The position numbers were made by a program, and so were the translations under genes. Of a stretch of 64,000 bases of DNA, positions 3,728 through 55,111 are shown piece after piece; within the stretch, counting starts at the first letter, position 1; each line of letters begins with the position of its first letter. A model generated the notes under the pieces. It made no database searches. It was not told the DNA's origin and worked only from the letters and a program-made list of their open reading frames with translations. This DNA comes from Spirochaetia bacterium (GTDB taxonomy: Bacteria > Spirochaetota > Spirochaetia > CADAEX01): contig JAFZIU010000077.1 in the NCBI GenBank assembly GCA_017554185.1, positions 182-64,181 of the forward strand. The letters run 5' to 3'.

Positions 3728-5077
3728 TCAGTCTGCCAGGTCTGTACCATCCTCTTTAGGCAGCCTGCCGAAGAAGTACAGGGCAAATGGCAATGTCATA
3801 GGAGCCGACAAGAGAAGTGACAGAGGCTGTGCCTCCTGTATGCCCGAAAGACCCCGGAAATGTGCAAGAAGAAGGAGAGTCGGGATAAAGAGAAGTCCGC
3901 TTCTTAGTGCCGAAACCAGCGATGCAGAAAGCCGGTGTCCGGTGCTCTGGAACAGCATCTCGGTCACCATGCATGGCGGCAGGACCAAGGATGCAACAGC
4001 GTGGAGACGCAGAGCCCTTTTTCCTATTACTATAACAGACGGGTCATCCCGCAGAAGCTGTACCAGCTGCGGAGCAAAGACAAACAGGATTATGACCCCA
4101 ACTACAATTATGCTTTCTGCCACCATCATTGTAAAACGGTAGCTCTGCCGGATCCGGGAATAGCGCCTTGCCCCATAGTTATAGGCAGCCACCGGCTGGA
4201 ACCCCTGTCCCACTCCCAATGCAAAGGAGAAGGTGAAGAATGTAAGCCTGGACACAATGCTCATGGCAGCAACCGCCGCATCGCCAAACAGAGCACACTG
4301 GGCGTTGAGAACCACGGTAGTAAGGCTGTGGAGCCCCTGCCTGAGCAGGCTTGGAAAACCTGTGGCAGCAATATTTCCCATAACCAATGGCGAAGCTTGG
4401 AGTGCCCGCTTTATGGAAAGCTGGGATTCTGTCTTGCCCCGCCGGAACATTGACACCAGGATAGACCAGCTTATGAACTGGCTTATGGCAGTGGAAAGGC
4501 CTGCTCCGAAAATCCCCATTTTCATGGCAAACATGAAGATAGGATCCATGACCATATTGAGCACTGCTCCGGTCATCATACCCATCATTCCCAGCCTGGC
4601 CTTTCCCTCGTAGCGGAGGAAGTTGTTCAGTGTAAAGCTGCTGGTCATAAATGGGGCTGCAATAAGGATGAAAGATATATAAGTCTTGGCATAAGGGGCA
4701 ATGGTGGGAGTGCTCCCCAAGAACATGACTATAGGGTCAAGCCAGATAAATCCGATAATGGCAATGCAAAGACCGCATGTCATGGAGCCGAAGAATCCGG
4801 CCGATGCGTGGAGGGATGCCCTTTCCTTGTCCCTGGCTCCCAACGCACGGGACAGGATACTCCCGCCTCCCTGGCCGAACATAAAGCCGAAGGCCTGGAT
4901 TATTGCCATGAAGCCGAATACAATGCCCACCGCACCGCTGGCACTGGTTCCCAGCCTGCCTACAAAGGCAGTATCTACCATGTTGTAGAGGTTGCTCACC
5001 ATCATGGTTATTATGCTGGGAATAGCCAGACGCAGGACAAGGCCCGACACCGGCATGTCGGTCATTCTGTCTTTCAT
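3728..5077 (-). CDS. MATE family efflux transporter
   Basis: 449 aa, 12 TM, MATE N-terminal signature (LAIPSIITMMVSNLYNMVDTAFVGRLG). Start abuts the stop of the upstream response-regulator gene. Confidence 0.85.
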   Translation of the reverse strand: MKDRMTDMPVSGLVLRLAIPSIITMMVSNLYNMVDTAFVGRLGTSASGAVGIVFGFMAIIQAFGFMFGQGGGSILSRALGARDKERASLHASAGFFGSMTCGLCIAIIGFIWLDPIVMFLGSTPTIAPYAKTYISFILIAAPFMTSSFTLNNFLRYEGKARLGMMGMMTGAVLNMVMDPIFMFAMKMGIFGAGLSTAISQFISWSILVSMFRRGKTESQLSIKRALQASPLVMGNIAATGFPSLLRQGLHSLTTVVLNAQCALFGDAAVAAMSIVSRLTFFTFSFALGVGQGFQPVAAYNYGARRYSRIRQSYRFTMMVAESIIVVGVIILFVFAPQLVQLLRDDPSVIVIGKRALRLHAVASLVLPPCMVTEMLFQSTGHRLSASLVSALRSGLLFIPTLLLLAHFRGLSGIQEAQPLSLLLSAPMTLPFALYFFGRLPKEDGTDLAD

Positions 5078-5734
5078 TTATGCATCCACCAGACCTATAT
5101 GGATAGCATATTTTATCAGTTCCACCATGTTGCTGCAGTTAAGCTTCTGCATAATGTTGGTGCGGTGGTTTATCACTGTCTTAGAGCTAATGCACAGTTC
5201 CTTGGCAATGTCCCGGATCTCACGTCCCTCTGCCAGAAGCCTCAATATCTCCTGCTCCCGGGAGGAGAGGGTGTCATAAGTGCTGTCCTCAGGCTGTTCC
5301 AGATCCTCTTCAGGCGAAATCAGGCTTGCTATTACCTTGCTGCTTATGCGGCTGTCCACATAGGTCTCGCCGGAAAGGACCTTCTTTATTCCATCTATGA
5401 TGCTGTCCATATCGGCTTCTTTAAGGATATAGCCTTTTGCTCCAGCCTTCAGCGACTCAGTGATGTAAATCACCTTTGAATACATGGAAAGCATCACAAT
5501 CTTTATTCCCGGATTCTTCTGGAGAATCTTTCGGGTAAGCTCTATGCCGGAAGCACCATAAAGAGAGATATCCATCACAATAAGGTCGGGCTTGAGGGTC
5601 ATGGCCTGGTTGTAACCTTCCTCGCTGTTTCCTGCCTCATATATTTTTTCTGCAATATTTTTCTTTAAAAGTTCTGCTCCGATGCTGGCCCTTATAGCCG
5701 GATGGTCGTCCACCAGTAAAATAGTATCAGCCAT
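5078..5734 (-). CDS. two-component response regulator, NarL/FixJ family (REC + LuxR-type HTH)
   Basis: REC domain (LLVDDHPAIR...DLIVMDISL) and C-terminal LuxR HTH (LSSREQEILRLLAEGREIRDIAKELCISSKTV). Confidence 0.85.
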   Translation of the reverse strand: MADTILLVDDHPAIRASIGAELLKKNIAEKIYEAGNSEEGYNQAMTLKPDLIVMDISLYGASGIELTRKILQKNPGIKIVMLSMYSKVIYITESLKAGAKGYILKEADMDSIIDGIKKVLSGETYVDSRISSKVIASLISPEEDLEQPEDSTYDTLSSREQEILRLLAEGREIRDIAKELCISSKTVINHRTNIMQKLNCSNMVELIKYAIHIGLVDA

Positions 5735-7004
5735 TTTCCTTCCCCTTGAATGGAATTCTTACGTTTATCTTAGTCCCCTTTCCGGGATTGGATGTTACGC
5801 TGAAAGTTCCGTTATAATACTTAACCCGCTCCTGCATACCATAGAATCCGATATGCTCCTTGGTCAGGCTTGCCCCAATACTGCTGTCAGGAAGCCCTAT
5901 TCCATCATCAGCCACCGAGAACATTACAAAAGGATAGGAATAGATGAACTTCATAGTCACCTTAGAGGCCTCGGCATACTTGACCACATTGTTCAGAATC
6001 TCCTGAATAATCCGGAACATGCTTATCCGCATATCCTCCGGCAGCGATATCTTGTTGAAGCCGGTGCTTGAGATTGCCAGCTGGATATTTTTTGCCATAA
6101 GGATCTCTGCTGCATAGCTTTTTATCACATCAACAAAATCCTCTCCCGATTCACTGGAGGAAATGAAAGGAATCAGGTTGAAGGAGATATCCCTTGCCTC
6201 GTCTATGATGGATGATATTTCGCTGGAGATATGCTCCTTATGGCCGTCAGCAATCACTGTATCGGTATACCCCTTGAGTTCCCGAAGCCTATGCACCAAA
6301 CTGTCGTGAATATCCATGGCAATACGTTTGCGCTCGTTCTCCCTTATATGGATAAGTGTTTTTGAAAGCTCCTGCAGCTTCTCTTCCTGCTCCAGCCTGT
6401 GCTCTATCTTGGCATTCCTGAAAATTGCAAAGGAAGAGATGAACATAAGTATTACAACAACCGCATATGACATGAGAAGATTCCGCCGCTGCTGTCGCCT
6501 GTTGACGTTACGCACAAAATGGCGCAGAAGACCGAAGAACCGGTCAACCTCCTGGGTGTCCCTGGAAATCCAGAGCACCAATGTAGCAAACTCTGTCAGG
6601 TTTTCTCCTGCCTGTAAAAGCGCAGTAAGCTGATATTGAACTCTCTGCCAGTTGTATACCAGAACCTGCCGGAAATCATGAACCTGTGGATATTGTCTTT
6701 CTATTTTCATGAATGTCTGGTCGTCGGAAATCTGCACCATGGAATTGTCGAATTCCTCGAAATCCTTGACCAGTCGCTCCTGTTCTGCTGTCCGCCCAGG
6801 AGAAGGAGAAGTGATATAAGAGAAAACCGAGGTACGGAGAATAAGCCAGTTCTCGTACATATCATCGACCTGGGAGTTCTTGACTATAAAACTCTCCTGA
6901 GTGAAGAAAGAGGTGGTGACAGTATAGACCACAATGCCGATGAGAACTATCTCAATGCACAGCAGCATTGCAATTTTCTTCAGATTCTTGATGCTGATTA
7001 CCAC
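5727..7004 (-). CDS. sensor histidine kinase (HisKA_3/HATPase_c, NarX/LiaS-like) with a periplasmic sensor domain of about 150 aa
   Basis: 2 TM. H-box DIHDSLVHRLRELKG. ATPase N/G boxes at the C-terminus. 8-nt overlap with the RR gene. GTG start in the track. Confidence 0.8.
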   Translation of the reverse strand: MVISIKNLKKIAMLLCIEIVLIGIVVYTVTTSFFTQESFIVKNSQVDDMYENWLILRTSVFSYITSPSPGRTAEQERLVKDFEEFDNSMVQISDDQTFMKIERQYPQVHDFRQVLVYNWQRVQYQLTALLQAGENLTEFATLVLWISRDTQEVDRFFGLLRHFVRNVNRRQQRRNLLMSYAVVVILMFISSFAIFRNAKIEHRLEQEEKLQELSKTLIHIRENERKRIAMDIHDSLVHRLRELKGYTDTVIADGHKEHISSEISSIIDEARDISFNLIPFISSSESGEDFVDVIKSYAAEILMAKNIQLAISSTGFNKISLPEDMRISMFRIIQEILNNVVKYAEASKVTMKFIYSYPFVMFSVADDGIGLPDSSIGASLTKEHIGFYGMQERVKYYNGTFSVTSNPGKGTKINVRIPFKGKENG

Positions 7005-7023
7005 CAGACTTTATCCCCCAAAC

Positions 7024-7062
7024 AAAAAAACCTTGTACTATAGTATACACCATAATACAAGG
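7024..7062 (-). terminator. rho-independent terminator after the M20 peptidase gene (32-nt hairpin ccttgta...tacaagg followed by U7 on the minus strand)
   Basis: Seen in sequence. The A-run precedes the hairpin on the plus strand. Confidence 0.5.
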
Positions 7063-7086
7063 TTATGTCTAAAAAGAGAATTATTT

Positions 7087-8445
7087 TTACTTACACCAGC
7101 GGTATATGGTCACAGCCAGAACTTTTATTCCCTTGATATAGTCATCAAGACTTATGTATTCATCGGTGCTGTGGGCCATTTTGATATCTCCCGGTCCGTA
7201 GACTATTGCTGGAATACCACCCTGGTTTCCAAAATGCCGTGCATCGCATCCGCCGCCAAGCTGGGTTATGACAGGCTCTTTTCCAAGGACATCCCGGATG
7301 GCATCCTCGGTAAGAGTCTTGATATCCTGCTTGTCGGATGGCAGCATGTATGCGTCGTCATAATGCTGGAACTTAATGACAGGGGGATTTGCCTTAAGCC
7401 AAGCATCATCCACATTCAGAACTGCATCCTTAAGCATTTTCTTGACACGGATTATTCCCTCTTTTCCTGTTCCAAGACCCGGTGAGAAATAGGCCACTCC
7501 GTTGATCACACATTCTGCAGCTGTTGCTGTAGCGTATGTACCTCCCTTGATTGTGCCTATGCACAGGGACATCATGGTCTTTTCCTTGTTCAGGCCTGTC
7601 TCCAGGCTGATAAGGCTGTCCACCACCAGTGCCGCCTTCTCTATGGCACTTATTCCGAAAGGTTTGTTATTCTGCCATCTGGATCCGGCATGGGTCTCGT
7701 ATCCCTTTATCCGTACTTCCCAGTAGACACCGCCGCCATTTCCATCCAGGATTACATTTCCTCCTGGACCGGCAGGCTCTGTGACAATTGCAGCATCTGC
7801 TTTGTAGCCGTCTGCTATAATGCCCAGTGCTCCGCCGCCGGCGTGTTCCTCGTTCACCACTGTCTGGATCATAAGGTCGCCTGCCAGAGGTACTTTCAGG
7901 GAAGTCAGAACTTCCACTGCACTGATCATGGCAGCAACGCCGCCTTTCATATCAACAGACCCGCGGCCATAGAGCTTGCCATCTTTAATCTCGGCTCCGA
8001 AAGGATCGACATGCCACTTGCTCTCGTCCCCTATTGGAACAGTGTCGATATGGCCATTTAGTATAAGGGACTTTCCGCCTCCTTTACCTTTCAGCTTTCC
8101 AACCAGATTAGGTCTGTCTTTGTATGATTTAAGCCTGTCAAATGGCGATGCCATCAGCTGCTCGTAAGTGAACTTATCCTCTGTCATCAGCGGCATATCC
8201 AGCCCTTCCTCTCCTATGGAAGGCACCTGGGCCACTTCGGGGAAAAGCTCGAACATCTTCTTGACATCGGGCTCCACCAGTTCAGTCTCAAACCCAAGGC
8301 CGGCTATCTTGCCCTGGACAAACTCCTGGGCTTTCTTCTCGTAGCCGGTAATGCTGGGGACCTTTACCAGATCCCCAAGAAACTTGATAAAATCATCCTT
8401 GTGTTCATCTACATACTGCACAAGCTGCTGTTCTATCTTGTCCAT
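7087..8445 (-). CDS. M20 family metallopeptidase (ArgE/DapE/dipeptidase-like)
   Basis: 452 aa. Metal-binding motifs (LNGHIDTVP, GRGSVDMKGG, NEEHAGG). Sits 9 nt downstream of the TRAP permease gene. Confidence 0.8.
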   Translation of the reverse strand: MDKIEQQLVQYVDEHKDDFIKFLGDLVKVPSITGYEKKAQEFVQGKIAGLGFETELVEPDVKKMFELFPEVAQVPSIGEEGLDMPLMTEDKFTYEQLMASPFDRLKSYKDRPNLVGKLKGKGGGKSLILNGHIDTVPIGDESKWHVDPFGAEIKDGKLYGRGSVDMKGGVAAMISAVEVLTSLKVPLAGDLMIQTVVNEEHAGGGALGIIADGYKADAAIVTEPAGPGGNVILDGNGGGVYWEVRIKGYETHAGSRWQNNKPFGISAIEKAALVVDSLISLETGLNKEKTMMSLCIGTIKGGTYATATAAECVINGVAYFSPGLGTGKEGIIRVKKMLKDAVLNVDDAWLKANPPVIKFQHYDDAYMLPSDKQDIKTLTEDAIRDVLGKEPVITQLGGGCDARHFGNQGGIPAIVYGPGDIKMAHSTDEYISLDDYIKGIKVLAVTIYRWCK

Positions 8446-8454
8446 ATCTTCTCC

Positions 8455-10422
8455 TTATGCAACTGCTGCCTTTTTCTTCTCTCTGATGTACCGTGTAAAA
8501 TGGAGGAATGCACCTGCACCAAACAGAACCAGCATGGAGATAAGGGCATAATCCTTCATGAAGAAGAAGCTTATTGTGGAGAGTGAGAACAGAATCATCT
8601 CTACAAAGCTCATCTTAGTGAACCAGAACCGCTGCGGAACTATGATGAGAGGGAACATGAACAGCATGAATTCAAGGAAGTTCTTTCCGACAATAAGCAA
8701 TGGGGCGTTGAACAGAAGTCCAGGCCAGATTACAAACATGAACGGAAGGAAATAGATGAACGGTGCCATTGTCATGGCAGTGACTCCTACCTTCATCGGC
8801 TTAGCACCTGCTATACCGGCTCCTACATATGCAGAAAGACATACTGGAGGGGTAATTGCAGAAAGGATTGCGAAGTAGAATACAAACAGGTGTGCTGCAA
8901 GCATCGGAGCACCCAGCTGTACCAGAGCAGGAACGCCCAGCGCTGCCAGAACTATGTATGCTGCCAGAGTAGGAAGTCCCATTCCCAGGATAACACACAT
9001 AAGAGCAGTGAAGGCAAGACCTATGAACAGGTTTCCGTTGGCAACAGAAAGAATTCCATATGCCAGACGTTCGCCGAATCCTGTCATAGACATAATTCCT
9101 ACAATAAGTCCGCATCCTGCACAGGAAGTGGTGATAGGAATCATAATCTTGGATGCCAGTGCCATAGCTTTCAGAATCTTGACTATTCCGACTCTCTTCT
9201 CTTTGAACGGCAGATAGCTGACTATAAGTGCCACTATGGACCACATTACAGCAAACTGTGTACTGAACTGAAGCGAGAGGAGGATAACAAGCACTGTGAT
9301 TGGAATAAGCAGAGGAACAACTTTCTTTGCAGATTCCTTGAAATCAGGAAGCTGTGATTTTGGAAGGCCTGTCATACCCTGCTTTCTTGCCCGGACATCA
9401 ACTACAAAGAACATACAGGTGAAATAGAGCACCGACGGCAGGAATGCTGCGATGCAGACTGCCCAGTAGGTGTTTCCTGTATACTCTGCAATAACAAATG
9501 CTGCAGCTCCCATGATAGGAGGCATGAACTGTCCTGCGGTGGAGGATACTGCCTCGATGGCAGCAGCCACGTGCCGCTTGAAGCCCATGGAAATCATAAG
9601 CGGAATGGTTACAGAACCGGTTGTTGCAACGTTACCGCTGGCACTTCCGGAAAGCATTCCCATGAAACCGCTGGATACTACAGCTACTTTTGCCGGGCCG
9701 CCGGTAAGATGGCCGGCAATCGCCTTAGAGAAATCCATAAACAGGTTGGTGGCGTTGGAAATCTTAAGGAAGGACGCAAACAGCATGAAGAATACAATCT
9801 GTGTACATCCTGTGGACATAAGGTCTCCAAGCATACCTTCTGTTCCAATTACCAGCTGGGTCACAAGCTGAGACGGCTCAAAGCCCACATGGGCAAAGAA
9901 CCGCGGCATATATGGACCCACGAAGCAGTACAGAAGGAAGACAAAGGCAATAATAGACATTGCCATGCCGATTGATCTTCTTATTGCCTCAAAGGTAAGG
10001 AAGATGAACAGGAAGGTGAACACCACCTCGTATGTCTGTGGATCTGGATAGATATAGAGCGGAACCCAGCGCAGCCGCGCCCAGATACATATTGCTATGA
10101 TAAGGGCAATCAGAATCAGGTTGAGCACGGTCTCTATCTTCTTATTCTTGAAGAAGCCGGATGGATATACCATGAATACGATTGTGTACATAAGCATGAT
10201 ATGCACCGGTCTCTGAATGTTAGGCGGGAAAGCGAATGCAAAAATCTCAAAGACCGGGATACCGATGACTATGACCCCGATGACAAACAGGAACTTCTTG
10301 ATCCAATCATGCTTGAAAAAAGCAGTCACACCCTGAAAATCGTCATCGTCGTAGATGTTGATTCCCATCTCCTTTTCGAGCTCTTCAATTTCAGCTTTGT
10401 TGAATTGTTTAGCTTCGGCCAC
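8455..10422 (-). CDS. TRAP transporter fused permease (TAXI-type 4TM/12TM DctQM fusion)
   Basis: 655 aa polytopic membrane protein. Adjacent to a TAXI binding protein. Confidence 0.85.
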   Translation of the reverse strand: MAEAKQFNKAEIEELEKEMGINIYDDDDFQGVTAFFKHDWIKKFLFVIGVIVIGIPVFEIFAFAFPPNIQRPVHIMLMYTIVFMVYPSGFFKNKKIETVLNLILIALIIAICIWARLRWVPLYIYPDPQTYEVVFTFLFIFLTFEAIRRSIGMAMSIIAFVFLLYCFVGPYMPRFFAHVGFEPSQLVTQLVIGTEGMLGDLMSTGCTQIVFFMLFASFLKISNATNLFMDFSKAIAGHLTGGPAKVAVVSSGFMGMLSGSASGNVATTGSVTIPLMISMGFKRHVAAAIEAVSSTAGQFMPPIMGAAAFVIAEYTGNTYWAVCIAAFLPSVLYFTCMFFVVDVRARKQGMTGLPKSQLPDFKESAKKVVPLLIPITVLVILLSLQFSTQFAVMWSIVALIVSYLPFKEKRVGIVKILKAMALASKIMIPITTSCAGCGLIVGIMSMTGFGERLAYGILSVANGNLFIGLAFTALMCVILGMGLPTLAAYIVLAALGVPALVQLGAPMLAAHLFVFYFAILSAITPPVCLSAYVGAGIAGAKPMKVGVTAMTMAPFIYFLPFMFVIWPGLLFNAPLLIVGKNFLEFMLFMFPLIIVPQRFWFTKMSFVEMILFSLSTISFFFMKDYALISMLVLFGAGAFLHFTRYIREKKKAAVA

Positions 10423-10437
10423 AGACTACCTCTTAAA

Positions 10438-11409
10438 TTATTTGATGATTCCTTTTTCCTTGAAGTATTTCAGAGCACCTGGGTGCATAGGAATTGGAAG
10501 TCCACCCTGTGGGTCATCCTTGTTGATCCATGGAACGTTGCTTGGCATAGCTTCCTGGAGGAAGTCCCAATGTTCCCACCATACTTTTGTGAACTCATAT
10601 GCCTGATCTTCTGGCAGTGTATCGAGACACATAATGAAGTATGTACTCTGGAACTGCTGTGCATCTGGAACATTGAACTCAGATCCGAATGTTGTGGATG
10701 AATAGTATGGATACTTCTCCATGAATTTCTTAGCAAGAGCATCGTCTGTAGGAAGGAATCTAATCTTTCTTGCAGTTGTGATCTCTTTCAGCTTTGCATG
10801 GCCGTGACCGAATGCATAGATAAGACAATCGGCCTGTCCATCGATGAACATTCTGGTTGCATCGTTTTTCATGATTCTGTAGATTCTTGCAGTCTGGTCA
10901 GTTACACCTGCCCATGAAAGAAGCTCGGAGAATGCGATTCCGTCTGGCTCGCCCTCTACATAGGTTGCAATACTCTTGCCCTTAAGGTCTGCCAATGTCT
11001 TGATGTTGGAATCAGCGTTTACAACGATGTTGAAGATTCCAGGCCAGATTCCGAACAGAATTCTGATGTTCTGTGGTTTGTCCCATGGCTCTTTTCCCTG
11101 AAGAGCTGTATATCCGCCAAGAGGCTCGCCCAATGCCAGCTGAGCTTTTCCTTCAGCCATTGCCTTGATGCTCTCGTTGGTAAGTCCAGGGGATGCACTG
11201 TTCATTGCAATGAAGTTTGTATTGTCAGTAATCAGTTTTGCATAAGCTGCACCGCATGCATACCATGATCCTCCGATTGAAGATGACTTGATGACTACAA
11301 ACTGCTTTCCGCCATCAGCTCCACCTTCGCCTTTCTCTTTGCTTCCACCGGCAAATACCATGCCAGCTGCAAGAAGAAGAACTAAAGCAAACAGTAATAC
11401 TTTTTTCAT
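10438..11409 (-). CDS. TAXI-family TRAP transporter solute-binding subunit
   Basis: Signal peptide plus TAXI fold motifs (IGGSWYACGAAYAKL). Confidence 0.85.
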   Translation of the reverse strand: MKKVLLFALVLLLAAGMVFAGGSKEKGEGGADGGKQFVVIKSSSIGGSWYACGAAYAKLITDNTNFIAMNSASPGLTNESIKAMAEGKAQLALGEPLGGYTALQGKEPWDKPQNIRILFGIWPGIFNIVVNADSNIKTLADLKGKSIATYVEGEPDGIAFSELLSWAGVTDQTARIYRIMKNDATRMFIDGQADCLIYAFGHGHAKLKEITTARKIRFLPTDDALAKKFMEKYPYYSSTTFGSEFNVPDAQQFQSTYFIMCLDTLPEDQAYEFTKVWWEHWDFLQEAMPSNVPWINKDDPQGGLPIPMHPGALKYFKEKGIIK

Positions 11410-11442: not shown

Positions 11443-11470
11443 AATATAGGGGGGGCTCCGGTGCCGTAAA
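11443..11470 (-). promoter_or_regulatory. candidate sigma70-like promoter of the TAXI-TRAP-M20 operon (minus strand -35 TTTACG, 16-nt spacer containing a C7 homopolymer, -10 TATATT)
   Basis: Plus-strand G7 tract at 11449..11455 lies inside the spacer. Hexamers are weak and read by eye. Confidence 0.3.
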
Positions 11471-17502: not shown

Positions 17503-17525
17503 AATCTAAATATACCTCCGATAAT

Positions 17526-18179
17526 CTAAATCGCCAACGGGTTCTCAAGCAAATCTTCCATGGAGCATCCCAGCACCTTGGAAAGCCGGAACAGCGCATT
17601 CACCTGGGCTTTGTCTATGTTGTTCTTCCGCTGTTCATACATCTGGATAGAACGCAGACTCACCTCTGACCGCTCAGCAAGTTGTGACTGTGAAAGGCCG
17701 TTTGCCTCCCTGATCCTCTTAAGATGTGTCTCTGCTCCCAGCTTTGAGCACACCTGATCAAGCCGTTCGATGAACCGGGTTATATCCATCTCATGGTATA
17801 CCGGATACATCTTAATAATTTCTGAAAGAGAAATATGTTCAAAGATGTCCCTGAAACTCCGGGCACTGTACCACTGATACTCTGCCAACGCCCACCCAGC
17901 CCAGTACTCCGGCGATTTTGACAAGGAAAACTTAACTTTTTGGGGCAACTTCTTTCCCGGATAGAAGCGGGAAATAATCTCAGATGCCAGCTCATAACCA
18001 GACATCCCGGCAACCACCCGGGGATTGCCGCATTCAAAAAGCCTTGCATACTCTGAGTTGATAAAAAACCTGGCAAAGAGATCTGCCTCTATCCCGACCA
18101 TGTTTATGGCATAGTCAAAGGCGGTAGCCAGATGCTTTTTTGCATCACTTAAATAGTATTCGCTGTATGCGTGCATCAT
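17526..18179 (-). CDS. protein with uncharacterised N-terminal domain and C-terminal XRE-family HTH (antitoxin-like)
   Basis: C-terminal HTH_3 (LKRIREANGLSQSQLAERSEVSLRSIQMYEQ). ATG at 18179 preceded by AAGGAG (the track TTG start at 18188 is less likely). Overlaps the upstream DUF3990-like gene by about 35 nt. Confidence 0.6.
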   Translation of the reverse strand: MMHAYSEYYLSDAKKHLATAFDYAINMVGIEADLFARFFINSEYARLFECGNPRVVAGMSGYELASEIISRFYPGKKLPQKVKFSLSKSPEYWAGWALAEYQWYSARSFRDIFEHISLSEIIKMYPVYHEMDITRFIERLDQVCSKLGAETHLKRIREANGLSQSQLAERSEVSLRSIQMYEQRKNNIDKAQVNALFRLSKVLGCSMEDLLENPLAI

Positions 18180-33650: not shown

Positions 33651-34493
33651 ATGATGACATACCAGAGTTTTAAGAAACGTGTTTTTGAAATTGTAGACAG
33701 ATCCAAGCCCGGCGATACTGCAAGCCGGATTTTTGATGTCTCGATAATTTCATTAATCATCGTCACTATTATCACAATCTTCATAGAGACTTTCGATATA
33801 CCTGACAAGCTGCAGAAAGCCATTGATAATTTTGAGACATTCACTCTGATTGTATTCTCGGTGGAGTATCTCCTCAGGCTCTGGGTCTCTCCGTTCCTTT
33901 ATCCACGCCTTTCTCCGGCCAAGGCCCGTCTGAAATACTGTTTCTCGTTCATAGCGATTCTGGACCTGATAGCAATCCTTCCGTTCTGGGTACCTGCCCT
34001 CTATCCCTTTGACCTCCGTATCCTGAGGGTTTTCTGGCTTATCAAGGCCAACCGGCATACCAGATCCATGCGGAAGCTTTTTGTGATAATGAAGCGGAAA
34101 AAAACAGAGCTGTTCTATTCATTATTTGTGCTGTTTGTTCTTCTGCTGGCCACCTCTGTCCTGGTTTATCATTTTGAGTCCAATGCCCAGCCAAATATAT
34201 ATGGCAATGCCCTGGAAGGCCTGTGGTGGTCTATATCAATATTCACATTTGCATGGCCTGGAGATGTCTATCCCATCACCATACCCGGAAGGCTTTTGGG
34301 TGGAATCATGGCTATAATAGGCATGGCAATAATTGCAGTCCCTGTAGGTATCATTTCATCCGGATTTATGGAAAGTGCGGAGAAATCCAGCAAAAACAAA
34401 GAAAGAGACGTCAAACTCGAGCTCCTCAATCAGATAAAAGAAGAACTGGATGACATCAAGAAAAAAGTTGATAAATCAGGAGATAAAGAATGA
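33651..34493 (+). CDS. Kv-like 6-TM ion channel with non-canonical selectivity filter (TFAWPGD)
   Basis: S4-like LRILRVFWLIKANRH. The pore region GLWWSISIFTFAWPGDVYPIT aligns to Kv [20 protein letters not shown]. Confidence 0.7.
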   Translation: MMTYQSFKKRVFEIVDRSKPGDTASRIFDVSIISLIIVTIITIFIETFDIPDKLQKAIDNFETFTLIVFSVEYLLRLWVSPFLYPRLSPAKARLKYCFSFIAILDLIAILPFWVPALYPFDLRILRVFWLIKANRHTRSMRKLFVIMKRKKTELFYSLFVLFVLLLATSVLVYHFESNAQPNIYGNALEGLWWSISIFTFAWPGDVYPITIPGRLLGGIMAIIGMAIIAVPVGIISSGFMESAEKSSKNKERDVKLELLNQIKEELDDIKKKVDKSGDKE

Positions 34494-34802: not shown

Positions 34803-35954
34803 TTACTTCATCAGGCTCTTAAACAGAGCAAGCACATCTTCCTTGGAAGCATCCCGTGGGTTGCCTGGGGCACATGCATCCTTGATAGCGCACTCTGCCA
34901 GATAGTCCAAGTCCGCTTCCTTGACAATGCCGTTAAGGCTCTGTGGAATTCCAACATCGATGGAGAGCTGGCGCACTGCATCAACTGCAGCCTTGCGGTA
35001 CTCTTCCTGACTCATTGTGGAAATGCCTTTCACTCCCATTGCCCAAGCGATATTGCGGTACTTCTCTCCGGAAGCCGGTGCATTGTATTCCATTACAGTC
35101 GGCAGCAGGATAGCGCATGCAACACCGTGCGGTGTGTCGTAGAAAGCACTCAGTGTATGAGCCATAGCATGGTCAATTCCAAGGCCTACGTTCGAGAAGC
35201 CCATTCCAGCCACATACTGGCCCAGAGCCATCTCTTCCCTTGCCTTTGGATCTCCCTTTACAGAGTCCCGCAGAGACCGGGCAATAATCTCGATAGCCTT
35301 CAGATGCATCATGTCGGTCATCTCCCAAGCGCCTTTGGTGATATATCCCTCGATAGCGTGGGTCAGGGCATCCATACCGGTGGAAGCCGCCAGTTTTGCA
35401 GGCATGGACATCATCATGTCCGGGTCTACACATGCGATTATTGGAATATCGTGAACATCGACGCATACGAACTTGCGCTTTGCCTGGACATCGGTGATTA
35501 CATAGTTGATTGTAACCTCGGCAGCTGTGCCGGATGTGGTCGGAACTGCGATTATAGGCAGACAAGGATTCTTGGTAGGGGCCACCCCTTCAAGGCTCCG
35601 CACGTCGGCAAACTCTGGGTTTGTGATTATGATTCCAACTGCCTTGGCTGTGTCCATAGAGGATCCGCCTCCGATAGCGATAATGTAATCTGCTCCGCAC
35701 TTCTTGCAGAACTCAACTCCGCTTAGAACATTCTCTACCGGTGGATTCGGCTTGATGTCGGAATATACCTCATATGCAAGTCCTGCTCCGTCCAGGATGT
35801 CGGTAACCTTCTTGGTGACGCCGAACTTAAGCAGATCCGGGTCGGTGCACACCAGCGCTTTTTTCCAGCCGTGAGCTTTTGCTTCGTTGACAATCTCGTT
35901 GATTGCCCCTTTTCCGTGGTAGGATGTCTGGTTAAGAGTAATTCTGTTTGCCAT
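34803..35954 (-). CDS. iron-containing alcohol dehydrogenase (FucO/DhaT-like)
   Basis: Fe-ADH motifs GGGSSMDTAK and the His cluster. Confidence 0.85.
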   Translation of the reverse strand: MANRITLNQTSYHGKGAINEIVNEAKAHGWKKALVCTDPDLLKFGVTKKVTDILDGAGLAYEVYSDIKPNPPVENVLSGVEFCKKCGADYIIAIGGGSSMDTAKAVGIIITNPEFADVRSLEGVAPTKNPCLPIIAVPTTSGTAAEVTINYVITDVQAKRKFVCVDVHDIPIIACVDPDMMMSMPAKLAASTGMDALTHAIEGYITKGAWEMTDMMHLKAIEIIARSLRDSVKGDPKAREEMALGQYVAGMGFSNVGLGIDHAMAHTLSAFYDTPHGVACAILLPTVMEYNAPASGEKYRNIAWAMGVKGISTMSQEEYRKAAVDAVRQLSIDVGIPQSLNGIVKEADLDYLAECAIKDACAPGNPRDASKEDVLALFKSLMK

Positions 35955-36027
35955 GTTTTCTCCTTTTTTTGTAGTCTAACATTACTATTGTAAGGGCAAA
36001 ATCCTTATCTGGCAAGAAATTTGTTGG

Positions 36028-36057
36028 TTGACTTTTCCCATAGGGGGGGGGTATCTT
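36028..36057 (+). promoter_or_regulatory. candidate promoter of the lipoprotein gene with a G9 homopolymer in the spacer (-35 TTGACT, 18-nt spacer tttcccata+G9, -10 TATCTT)
   Basis: G tract at 36043..36051. With G8 the spacing would be 17 nt. Confidence 0.4.
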
Positions 36058-36097
36058 TAAAGTAGAGTTTAAATACTTTGACAAAGGAGGCTTCAAA

Positions 36098-36595
36098 ATG
36101 AAGTCAAAATCATTATTTTTTATCTTTTTAATGGTTTGCCTGGTGTTCTTCCTTGCCAGCTGTGATGGCGGTGGAAGTTCCGGTGGTGGCGGCGGTGAAG
36201 GAAGCGGCGGTGATGTATTTGTTATTACCGATGTAACTCCTCACGATGGTATTGATGATATTCATACTGTTTCTGGAGGTATTTATATTTCATCAGGTGG
36301 AAATGTACTCATTATTAAGGACAGAATAGAGTTAAATAATGGTGGAACCATCCTCGATAAAGTCCAAGCAGAAATAGATGGCGTTCCTGCCGCTAATAGT
36401 GAGTTTACCGGTACATGGAGCCTAAATGGAAATAAATATACCGTTCATCTGACAAAAGAGAAAGATAAACTCGAGGGAACAACAAAAGATGTTGATATCA
36501 ATGCCTCAGCCACCCTTTCTGCAGACGGGAAGACTTTGACATCTGATCAGAAACAAGAGGGTATAGAATGGTATTACGTTTATACAAAGCAGTGA
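36098..36595 (+). CDS. lipoprotein with Gly/Ser-rich linker (165 aa)
   Basis: Lipobox LASC followed by DGGGSSGGGGGEGSGG. AGGAGG RBS. AT-rich gene. Confidence 0.6.
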   Translation: MKSKSLFFIFLMVCLVFFLASCDGGGSSGGGGGEGSGGDVFVITDVTPHDGIDDIHTVSGGIYISSGGNVLIIKDRIELNNGGTILDKVQAEIDGVPAANSEFTGTWSLNGNKYTVHLTKEKDKLEGTTKDVDINASATLSADGKTLTSDQKQEGIEWYYVYTKQ

Positions 36596-36618
36596 TTTTT
36601 ACTGCGTTTGATTGATAC

Positions 36619-36646
36619 AAGGCAGGGTTTTGACTCTGCCTTTTTT
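36619..36646 (+). terminator. rho-independent terminator (aggcag-N10-ctgcct plus T5)
   Basis: Seen in sequence. Confidence 0.5.
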
Positions 36647-36690
36647 GTTGCAGTGCAATGATTTAGAAAAAAGTTTAAAAATTTTTCATT

Positions 36691-54842: not shown

Positions 54843-54960
54843 GAAAACCTCCAAAAAAAACAGCCAAGCAGACTGCATCACATTGGCTGCCGCTTACCGC
54901 TGCTACCTTCCGGTCCTGACGGGGTTGGGCGGAGCTCAATTGCACAGTGCCTGGCTGAAG

Positions 54961-55047
<87 letters not shown>

Positions 55048-55082
55048 AAAGGCTCGTACAGTTTATCCACAAAAAATGTAAA

Positions 55083-55111
55083 TTGTCAAGCGTATAATAA
55101 TTTGGTAATAT
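55083..55111 (+). promoter_or_regulatory. candidate promoter TTGTCA-N17-TAATAT ending 6 nt before the M23 peptidase ATG (possibly leaderless)
   Basis: Hexamers read by eye. Confidence 0.35.

Follow-up and report, generated by a model that had tools for sequence, protein, structure and literature searches.

A G9 tract in the promoter spacer of a lipoprotein gene as a candidate slipped-strand length-variable site in a presumed rumen Treponema

Promoter switching by homopolymeric tracts is textbook knowledge for mucosal pathogens, Treponema pallidum included. In the case of Neisseria meningitidis porA, one-base slipped-strand changes lead to graded, high-to-none expression of the surface protein, and the tracts are usually 9–11 nt long. 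Other promoters with spacer repeats are those of the Bordetella pertussis fim genes (poly-C), Haemophilus influenzae hifA/hifB (TA repeats) and Mycoplasma hyorhinis vlp genes (poly-A). The hif repeat is also situated between divergent promoters, and the vlp targets are lipoproteins of a rapidly diversifying family. To our knowledge, hardly anyone has searched uncultured commensal spirochaetes for this type of switching, and our full-text literature search for rumen, Treponema and phase-variable found no report.

In T. pallidum, a poly-G tract in the -35/-10 spacer of tp0126, the gene of an OmpW homologue, sets expression with an optimum at 17 nt (Giacani et al. 2015, Infect Immun 83:2275, summarised in PMC7864442). 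Poly-G tracts of 7–12 nt are likewise found in the promoters of the envelope genes tprE/G/J and tprL. For tprE/G/J, eight G's or fewer are permissive, and in tprL, G9 predominates over minorities of G8 and G10 (PMC7864442). Among clonal isolates of T. pallidum, length variants were detected at 24 of the 46 poly-G/C tracts of at least 8 nt and at none of the shorter ones, with more than 90% of the reads of a clone at one length (PMC10013896).

The locus described here is located in a 64-kb stretch of DNA (the window, in its whole length), in which positions 36028-36057 read TTGACT-TTTCCCATA-GGGGGGGGG-TATCTT. On the + strand, these positions comprise the -35 hexamer TTGACT (36028..36033), an 18-nt spacer composed of tttcccata and G9 (36034..36051) and the -10 hexamer TATCTT (36052..36057), with the G9 homopolymer, a candidate slipped-strand tract, at 36043..36051. 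An earlier note on this DNA had given the same reading and the same coordinates, and both were confirmed exactly. The transcription start region is predicted at 36063..36066 (+; about 36064) from the usual distance of 6–9 nt past the -10 box, and the RBS AAGGAGG (36084..36090, +) precedes the ATG by 7 nt. Run counts revealed that G9 is the sole G or C run of at least 8 nt in the window, the i.i.d. expectation for the 64 kb being 0.10 for G runs and 0.18 for C runs of at least 9 nt. Two features of porA/tp0126-type promoters, an uninterrupted G/C tract of at least about 8 nt and its location within the -35/-10 spacer of the promoter that serves the adjacent gene, are thus present, the latter in silico.

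The gene downstream (36098..36595, +; ATG at 36098) encodes a 165-aa lipoprotein. Its start, MKSKSLFFIFLMVCLVFFLASC-DGGGSSGGGGGEGSGG, comprises a signal peptide, a LASC lipobox with Cys22 and a Gly/Ser linker that tethers a calycin-like β-barrel domain, and Cys22 is invariant. The product had been correctly described in the earlier note as a lipoprotein with a Gly/Ser linker, while the description of the gene as AT-rich holds only mildly (40% G+C vs 48% in the window). The N-terminal lipobox and the small closed antiparallel β-barrel place the protein among calycin (lipocalin/avidin-like) lipoproteins, and the match to Pfam Lipocalin_4 (PF13648; 17.5 bits, E = 0.0078) stays under the gathering cut-off of 22.4 bits; the likeness is one of shared fold, not of membership in the sequence family. 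By its signal peptide and LASC lipobox the protein is an envelope or surface component, as are the targets of porA/tp0126-type promoters. A terminator-like hairpin (36619..36649, +), formed by a 10-bp stem (36619-36642; AAGGCAGGGTTTTGACTCTGCCTT) and followed by TTTTGTT, stands directly past the stop codon, which suggests that the lipoprotein gene is monocistronic. Comparable hairpins are located ahead of the next promoter copy in L005, L006 and L093.

The divergent upstream neighbour of the lipoprotein gene encodes an iron-containing alcohol dehydrogenase (ADH; 34803-35954, -, by annotation). The closest relatives of this ADH are encoded by the ruminant-gut MAGs RUG13243, RGIG6743 (sheep rumen) and RGIG9992, labelled Treponema sp., Spirochaetaceae or Spirochaetia. 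Locus L015 shares synteny with the window across tens of kb at 79–89% DNA identity, and the contigs that carry an identical lipoprotein come from ruminant metagenome assemblies. On the basis of this sequence evidence, we assign the host to an uncultured rumen Treponema/Spirochaetaceae. A scan of GTDB species genomes with the ADH protein supplied this assignment and also led to L008 and L015, the two syntenic loci; the scan of the same genomes with the lipoprotein alignment confirmed no relative, and a protein-based metagenome scan retrieved one distant locus only (L090).

Between the window and L015, the ADH is 96% and the TrpB-like protein 98% identical, as opposed to only 35% protein identity for the lipoproteins encoded in the same slot. 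Such fast divergence, together with paralogy, is typical of exposed envelope proteins, and the lipoprotein may be exposed at the surface. We also noticed that the promoter, lipoprotein gene and terminator behave as a unit resembling a mobile or fast-evolving cassette, with copies at 36028-36649 of the window and in L005 (150-1344), L006 (996-2189), L093 (300-881) and L015 (9383-9930). The unit forms tandem paralogs after a TSCPD gene in L005 and L006 and follows an unrelated gene in L093.

In the consensus promoter scan, TTGACT-18-TATCTT matched 9 of 12 positions, a score that has no significance by itself, as the scan returned 6 promoter-like sites per 1.4 kb vs 2.4 ± 1.5 in shuffled sequences. 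Three downstream alternatives for the -10 box (TTTAAA, TAAAGT and TAAATA) were rejected on inspection, for none has an acceptable -35 box at 16–18 nt. Upstream regions of lipoprotein orthologs and paralogs were collected, and 13 of them were aligned (MAFFT; columns shift by one at 17-nt spacers). TTGAC is invariant in 13/13 of them and is followed in each, at 17–18 nt, by a TAnnnT box, which in the homologues reads TAAAAT, TATACT, TATCAT, TATATT, TAATCT, TAAGAT, TATAAT or TACCAT. At the matching place, orthologs retain an (A)AGGAG motif and then ATG; apart from the promoter boxes, the spacers and leaders of the 13 regions diverge. Given the invariant TTGAC and the TAnnnT box at 17–18 nt in 13 regions, TTGACT and TATCTT very probably represent a real sigma-70-type promoter of the lipoprotein gene with the tract inside its spacer, in agreement with the proposal of the earlier note.

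Putative tRNA promoters of the window, TTGACA-17-TATACT (tRNA-Arg) and TTGACA-18-TAAACT (tRNA-Ser), indicate that an E. coli-like consensus applies and that 18-nt spacers are in use here. Throughout the whole window, sites of the form TTGAC.-N-TA...T number 6 for N = 17 and 7 for N = 18, with 0–4 at other spacings. The tRNA-Ser (GGA) gene and the gene of a small SRP RNA (RF00169, 64.9 bits) are arranged head to tail (54859-55089, -) downstream of the promoter-like site TTGACA-18-TAAACT. This organization suggests a shared transcript, and the site is an example of an 18-nt spacer in a probably strong promoter.

Relatives vary in the G run by the -10 box of the lipoprotein promoter. L015 and L008 possess a G4 that abuts the -10 box within a 17-nt spacer. 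Spacers of 18 nt are found in L091 (12 nt, G5 and T), in L100 (12 nt and G6), in L006b, in the window and in L093, where the sequence TTGACT-ttttcgcat-G9-TAAAAT repeats the 9 + G9 composition of the window. The spacer total is thus kept as the run grows (12 + 6 to 9 + 9), which points to selection on spacing, and judged from these sequences 18 nt is the spacing typical of this promoter family, with or without a long G run. The argument of the earlier note that 18 nt is suboptimal and that loss of one G would create the optimal 17 nt is therefore weak, since 18 nt is conserved in the closest orthologs; a copy with one G fewer is present in one contig (see below). The same series of spacers is one argument for a competing explanation, namely a fixed ordinary promoter in which G9 is a neutral or compositional extension, the spacer is held at 18 nt by purifying selection and G8 is an error or an inconsequential rare variant, so that phase variation of any biological consequence would be absent. 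Relatives with G4, G5 or G6 at the tract position, all with a total of 17–18 nt, speak for it, and the tract could be no more than a neutrally lengthened compositional trait of the spacer. We take a fixed promoter seriously, with a probability that falls noticeably short of even.

Tract lengths were compared in consensus assemblies. Among six near-identical assemblies, the tract is G9 in the window, L001/L089, L002, L003 and L088, and G8 in L004, a 1.1-kb Logan contig (SRR12529263) that matches the window at 100% identity across 1142 nt, the tract apart, so that its spacer measures 17 nt. Length variation thus rests on one contig of six. The earlier note had named a uniform G9 length as the outcome that would speak against a variable promoter, and at the level of consensus assemblies the length is not uniform, L004 reading G8. 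Near-identical overlaps amounting to about 13.3 kb contain no indel other than the G8/G9 difference, besides a few SNPs away from the promoter; this makes the tract a hotspot for indels, of biological or of technical origin. A pure G9 also occupies the same place in L093 and L092, which share 89% DNA identity with the window and differ from it in the -10 box and the upstream gene. In total, the tract is exactly G9 in 7/8 assemblies spanning two lineages. The samples belong to one study and are not clearly independent, and L097-L099 (P0007 contigs) were left out of the length comparison because they begin at or past the G run. Further tract-spanning contigs were sought by an exact look-up of the TrpB-like protein, which gave no record, and by a scan of JGI metagenomes with the flanks and a variable gap (TTGACTTTTCCCATA-N2-25-TATCTTTAAAG), which gave no match.

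Three independent metagenome contigs end no more than 2 nt from the G run, namely L092 (1-11, AT then G9) and L097 and L099 (both 1-8, starting with GGTATACT). Assembly may have broken off there because the homopolymer is heterogeneous or hard to sequence, or the ends may mark a recombination junction; they are proof of neither. In L088, a G>A change relative to position 34226 of the window (gene 33651-34493, +) converts Trp192 of an ion-transport protein (PF00520) into a stop, and the split gene may represent strain-level inactivation or an assembly error.

The constancy of the tract can be argued both ways. More spread than an exact G9 in 7/8 assemblies, including a lineage at about 11% DNA divergence, might be expected of a highly unstable tract, and an intact 9-site run at this divergence is not improbable by chance (0.89^9 about 0.35), both of which suit a fixed promoter. 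The single variant comes from one short Logan contig, where a homopolymer assembly or sequencing slip is possible. Moreover, G8 (17 nt) and G9 (18 nt) are both normal spacings, and hence the sole observed variant need not alter expression much. Yet, for a fixed promoter it is unexpected that the only indel of the 13.3 kb falls in these 9 bp, and in T. pallidum the instability of tracts as long as this one has been demonstrated (PMC7864442, PMC10013896). By analogy, a dominant G9 in consensus sequences is compatible with phase variation, because the tprL tract is mostly G9 yet has G8 and G10 minorities, and because clones with more than 90% of reads at one length nevertheless differ from each other.

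A further point that neutral composition does not predict emerged from a census of G/C runs, in which 450 kb of Treponema/Spirochaetia loci (L008-L025, L036, L046, L049, L062, L072, L074, L077, L083 and L085) were compared with 739 kb of non-spirochaete loci from the same query, each against i.i.d. expectation. For runs of 7 nt, observed vs expected numbers were 3/26.7 in Treponema and 5/69 in other bacteria; for 8 nt, 1/6.7 and 1/19; for 9 nt, 4/1.7 and 1/5.3; and for at least 10 nt, 1/0.58 and 0/2.1, respectively. The Treponema loci are thus bimodal, with runs of 7–8 nt depleted about ten-fold and runs of 9–10 nt in about 2.4-fold excess, small as these numbers are, whereas in the non-spirochaete loci the depletion is monotonic with run length. 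A second mode at 9–10 nt is the signature expected if selection retains long tracts, again with the reservation of small numbers, and an excess of 9-10-mers beside such a depletion of 7-8-mers argues against the fixed promoter. We also found TAnnnT directly 3' of G/C runs of at least 7 nt in 3/10 tracts besides the index case (nominal p = 5.5e-4); the pattern was set post hoc and one of the three (L085) lies within an ORF, so we treat it as a lead only.

Taking this evidence together, we regard the G9 site as a credible candidate for a slipped-strand length-variable promoter of a calycin-like lipoprotein gene in a rumen Treponema, an explanation that we hold to be slightly more likely than not. 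G9 fills the -10-proximal half of the spacer of what is very probably a sigma-70-type promoter, and slipped-strand mispairing during replication would add or remove one G, so that G8, G9 and G10 would correspond to spacers of 17, 18 and 19 nt. The change of spacer would alter the distance and the rotational phasing of the two boxes and, in consequence, the rate of transcription initiation. Both G9 and G8 would probably be expressed, with expression lowered or silent at G10 and above or at G7 and below, and a subpopulation of cells would thereby acquire a volume control that is both reversible and heritable. G9 is probably the active rather than a crippled state, because 18 nt is family-typical, is as frequent as 17 nt in the window and occurs in the putative tRNA-Ser promoter. 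The phase-variable promoter put forward in the earlier note thus keeps its basis in the position of the tract in the spacer and in one G8 copy; what changes is the expected behaviour, which would be graded control rather than rescue from a handicapped 18-nt state, with G8, G9 and G10 acting as a volume control more than as an on/off switch. For this scheme we infer the transcription start site, the slippage rate, the effect of length on transcription and the surface exposure of the product.

The position of the run permits other modes of action than spacing. The G9 abuts the -10 hexamer in the window and L093, and G-rich blocks abut it in most relatives, as would suit either the binding of a protein or an effect of a rigid G:C block on melting by the -10 box, as discussed for tprL. 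In L036, a G9 abuts TAGAAT at 22 nt from TTGACA, and spacing logic alone misfits this arrangement. A third variant of this explanation is an effect on the divergent ADH promoter, some 28 bp off on the other strand. The ADH promoter-like site TTGCCA-17-TACAAT (35987..36015, -) matches 10/12 positions in the consensus scan and hence scores better than the lipoprotein site, and its -35 box is only 12 bp from the lipoprotein -35 box. Yet, the tract is located upstream of the ADH -35 box, beyond the core promoter, and the ADH promoter is conserved in relatives without a long run, the cTTGCCA box being kept in L007, L015, L008, L091 and L100. No regulator motif or inverted repeat stands out at the site, and the local hairpin does not exceed that of shuffled sequence in stability (z = -0.40). 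We consider it highly unlikely that the tract acts other than by spacing.

The probability that the tract is an RNA element, either a cis-regulatory leader or the hairpin of an intrinsic terminator, with U's after CTTTTCCC-ATA-GGGGGGGG, is in our estimate next to negligible. The terminator scan did give three overlapping hairpin calls at 36032-36051, but the stem depends on G-U pairs and the tail reads GUAUCUUUAA. A Rho-independent terminator made of CTTTTCCC and GGGGGGGG was rejected, as no co-oriented gene lies upstream, the neighbour being divergent, and the fold reaches -11.2 kcal/mol with the same z of -0.40. Rfam returned nothing relevant for the whole window and nothing at the site at gathering threshold. 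In a relaxed Rfam search of 35900-36250 (E ≤ 1), the best match was a chance-level preQ1-II at 35952-35983 (E 0.62, 20 vs a cut-off of 47 bits), away from the tract.

Similar tracts were seen elsewhere in the window and in related loci. Second in length among the G/C runs of the window is a C7 (11449-11455, -), situated in the spacer of TTTACG-16-TATATT (11443-11470, -) and abutting the -10 box, upstream of a gene encoding a TAXI-family TRAP solute-binding protein with a signal peptide (10438-11409, -; TIGR02122, E = 8e-53). The architecture is that of the G9 lipoprotein promoter with a shorter run. The G9 of L036 (12695-12703, -; uncultured Spirochaetaceae E24_bin239), which abuts TAGAAT, precedes by 32 nt the ATG of a gene for an unrelated lipoprotein of 237 aa (MKKILASLLALAMLFAFTAC...), and the spacers there, 22 nt to TTGACA and 14 nt to TTGCAA, do not fit a simple spacing model. 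L014 (Treponema sp. RGIG3209) possesses two 9-mers outside long ORFs (9620-9628 and 17522-17530). Its C9 precedes by 33 nt the ATG of a gene that is divergent from ADH and encodes a membrane protein of 835 aa, i.e., in the slot of the window lipoprotein, and its G9 adjoins the gene of a 443-aa membrane protein. In L085 (Treponema sp. Gsp477_bin62), a G9 (6870-6878) is in frame within an 838-aa ORF (5070-7586, -), possibly as a variable tract of the translational frameshift type.

The mechanism itself is not new, and the host and the target are mildly so. If confirmed, the locus would be a concrete case of a rumen treponeme that controls an envelope lipoprotein stochastically, and poly-G contingency loci would then seem to characterize the whole genus. 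As a caution, the consensus of a MAG hides tract heterogeneity, and such sites tend to interrupt assemblies. A wider proposition, doubtful at present, is that rumen and gut treponemes carry genome-wide G9/C9 contingency tracts, preferentially -10-proximal in the promoters of envelope genes. Candidates for such a set are the window lipoprotein, the L036 lipoprotein, the membrane sensor-like protein of L014 and the C7 of the window TAXI gene, with an intragenic one in L085. Were this true, commensal spirochaetes would possess stochastic surface variation of the T. pallidum type, its use in the rumen might be directed against phage, protozoal grazing or host IgA, and the poly-G strategy of the syphilis spirochaete would be ancestral to the genus and not an adaptation specific to the pathogen.

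With regard to known systems, the locus shares with fim, hif and vlp a simple repeat in or beside the promoter boxes and the control of surface structures or lipoproteins, while the types of repeat, the regulators and the organisms differ, and the divergent gene in the window is metabolic and has the tract outside its core promoter. A dominant G9 with rare variants is reminiscent of tprL; yet, the tprL tract overlaps the -10 region and leaves the -35/-10 spacing unchanged (PMC7864442), and the target proteins of tprE/G/J and tprL are unrelated to the window lipoprotein. The position of the poly-G within the -35/-10 spacer is that of N. meningitidis porA (PMC7864442), which in turn belongs to a pathogen of another phylum and is experimentally established. 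With tp0126, the locus has in common the genus, a G tract that sets the length of a sigma-70-type spacer and an envelope protein gene as the target (PMC7864442). Heterogeneity and length-dependent reporter activity were measured for tp0126, unlike here, where there is one G8/G9 difference between assemblies. The organism and target differ as well, i.e., a commensal rumen treponeme with a calycin-like lipoprotein and a majority spacer of 18 nt as opposed to a pathogen with an OmpW-type barrel. By these comparisons, T. pallidum tp0126 is the closest known case, and N. meningitidis porA is the classical example of poly-G in a promoter spacer.
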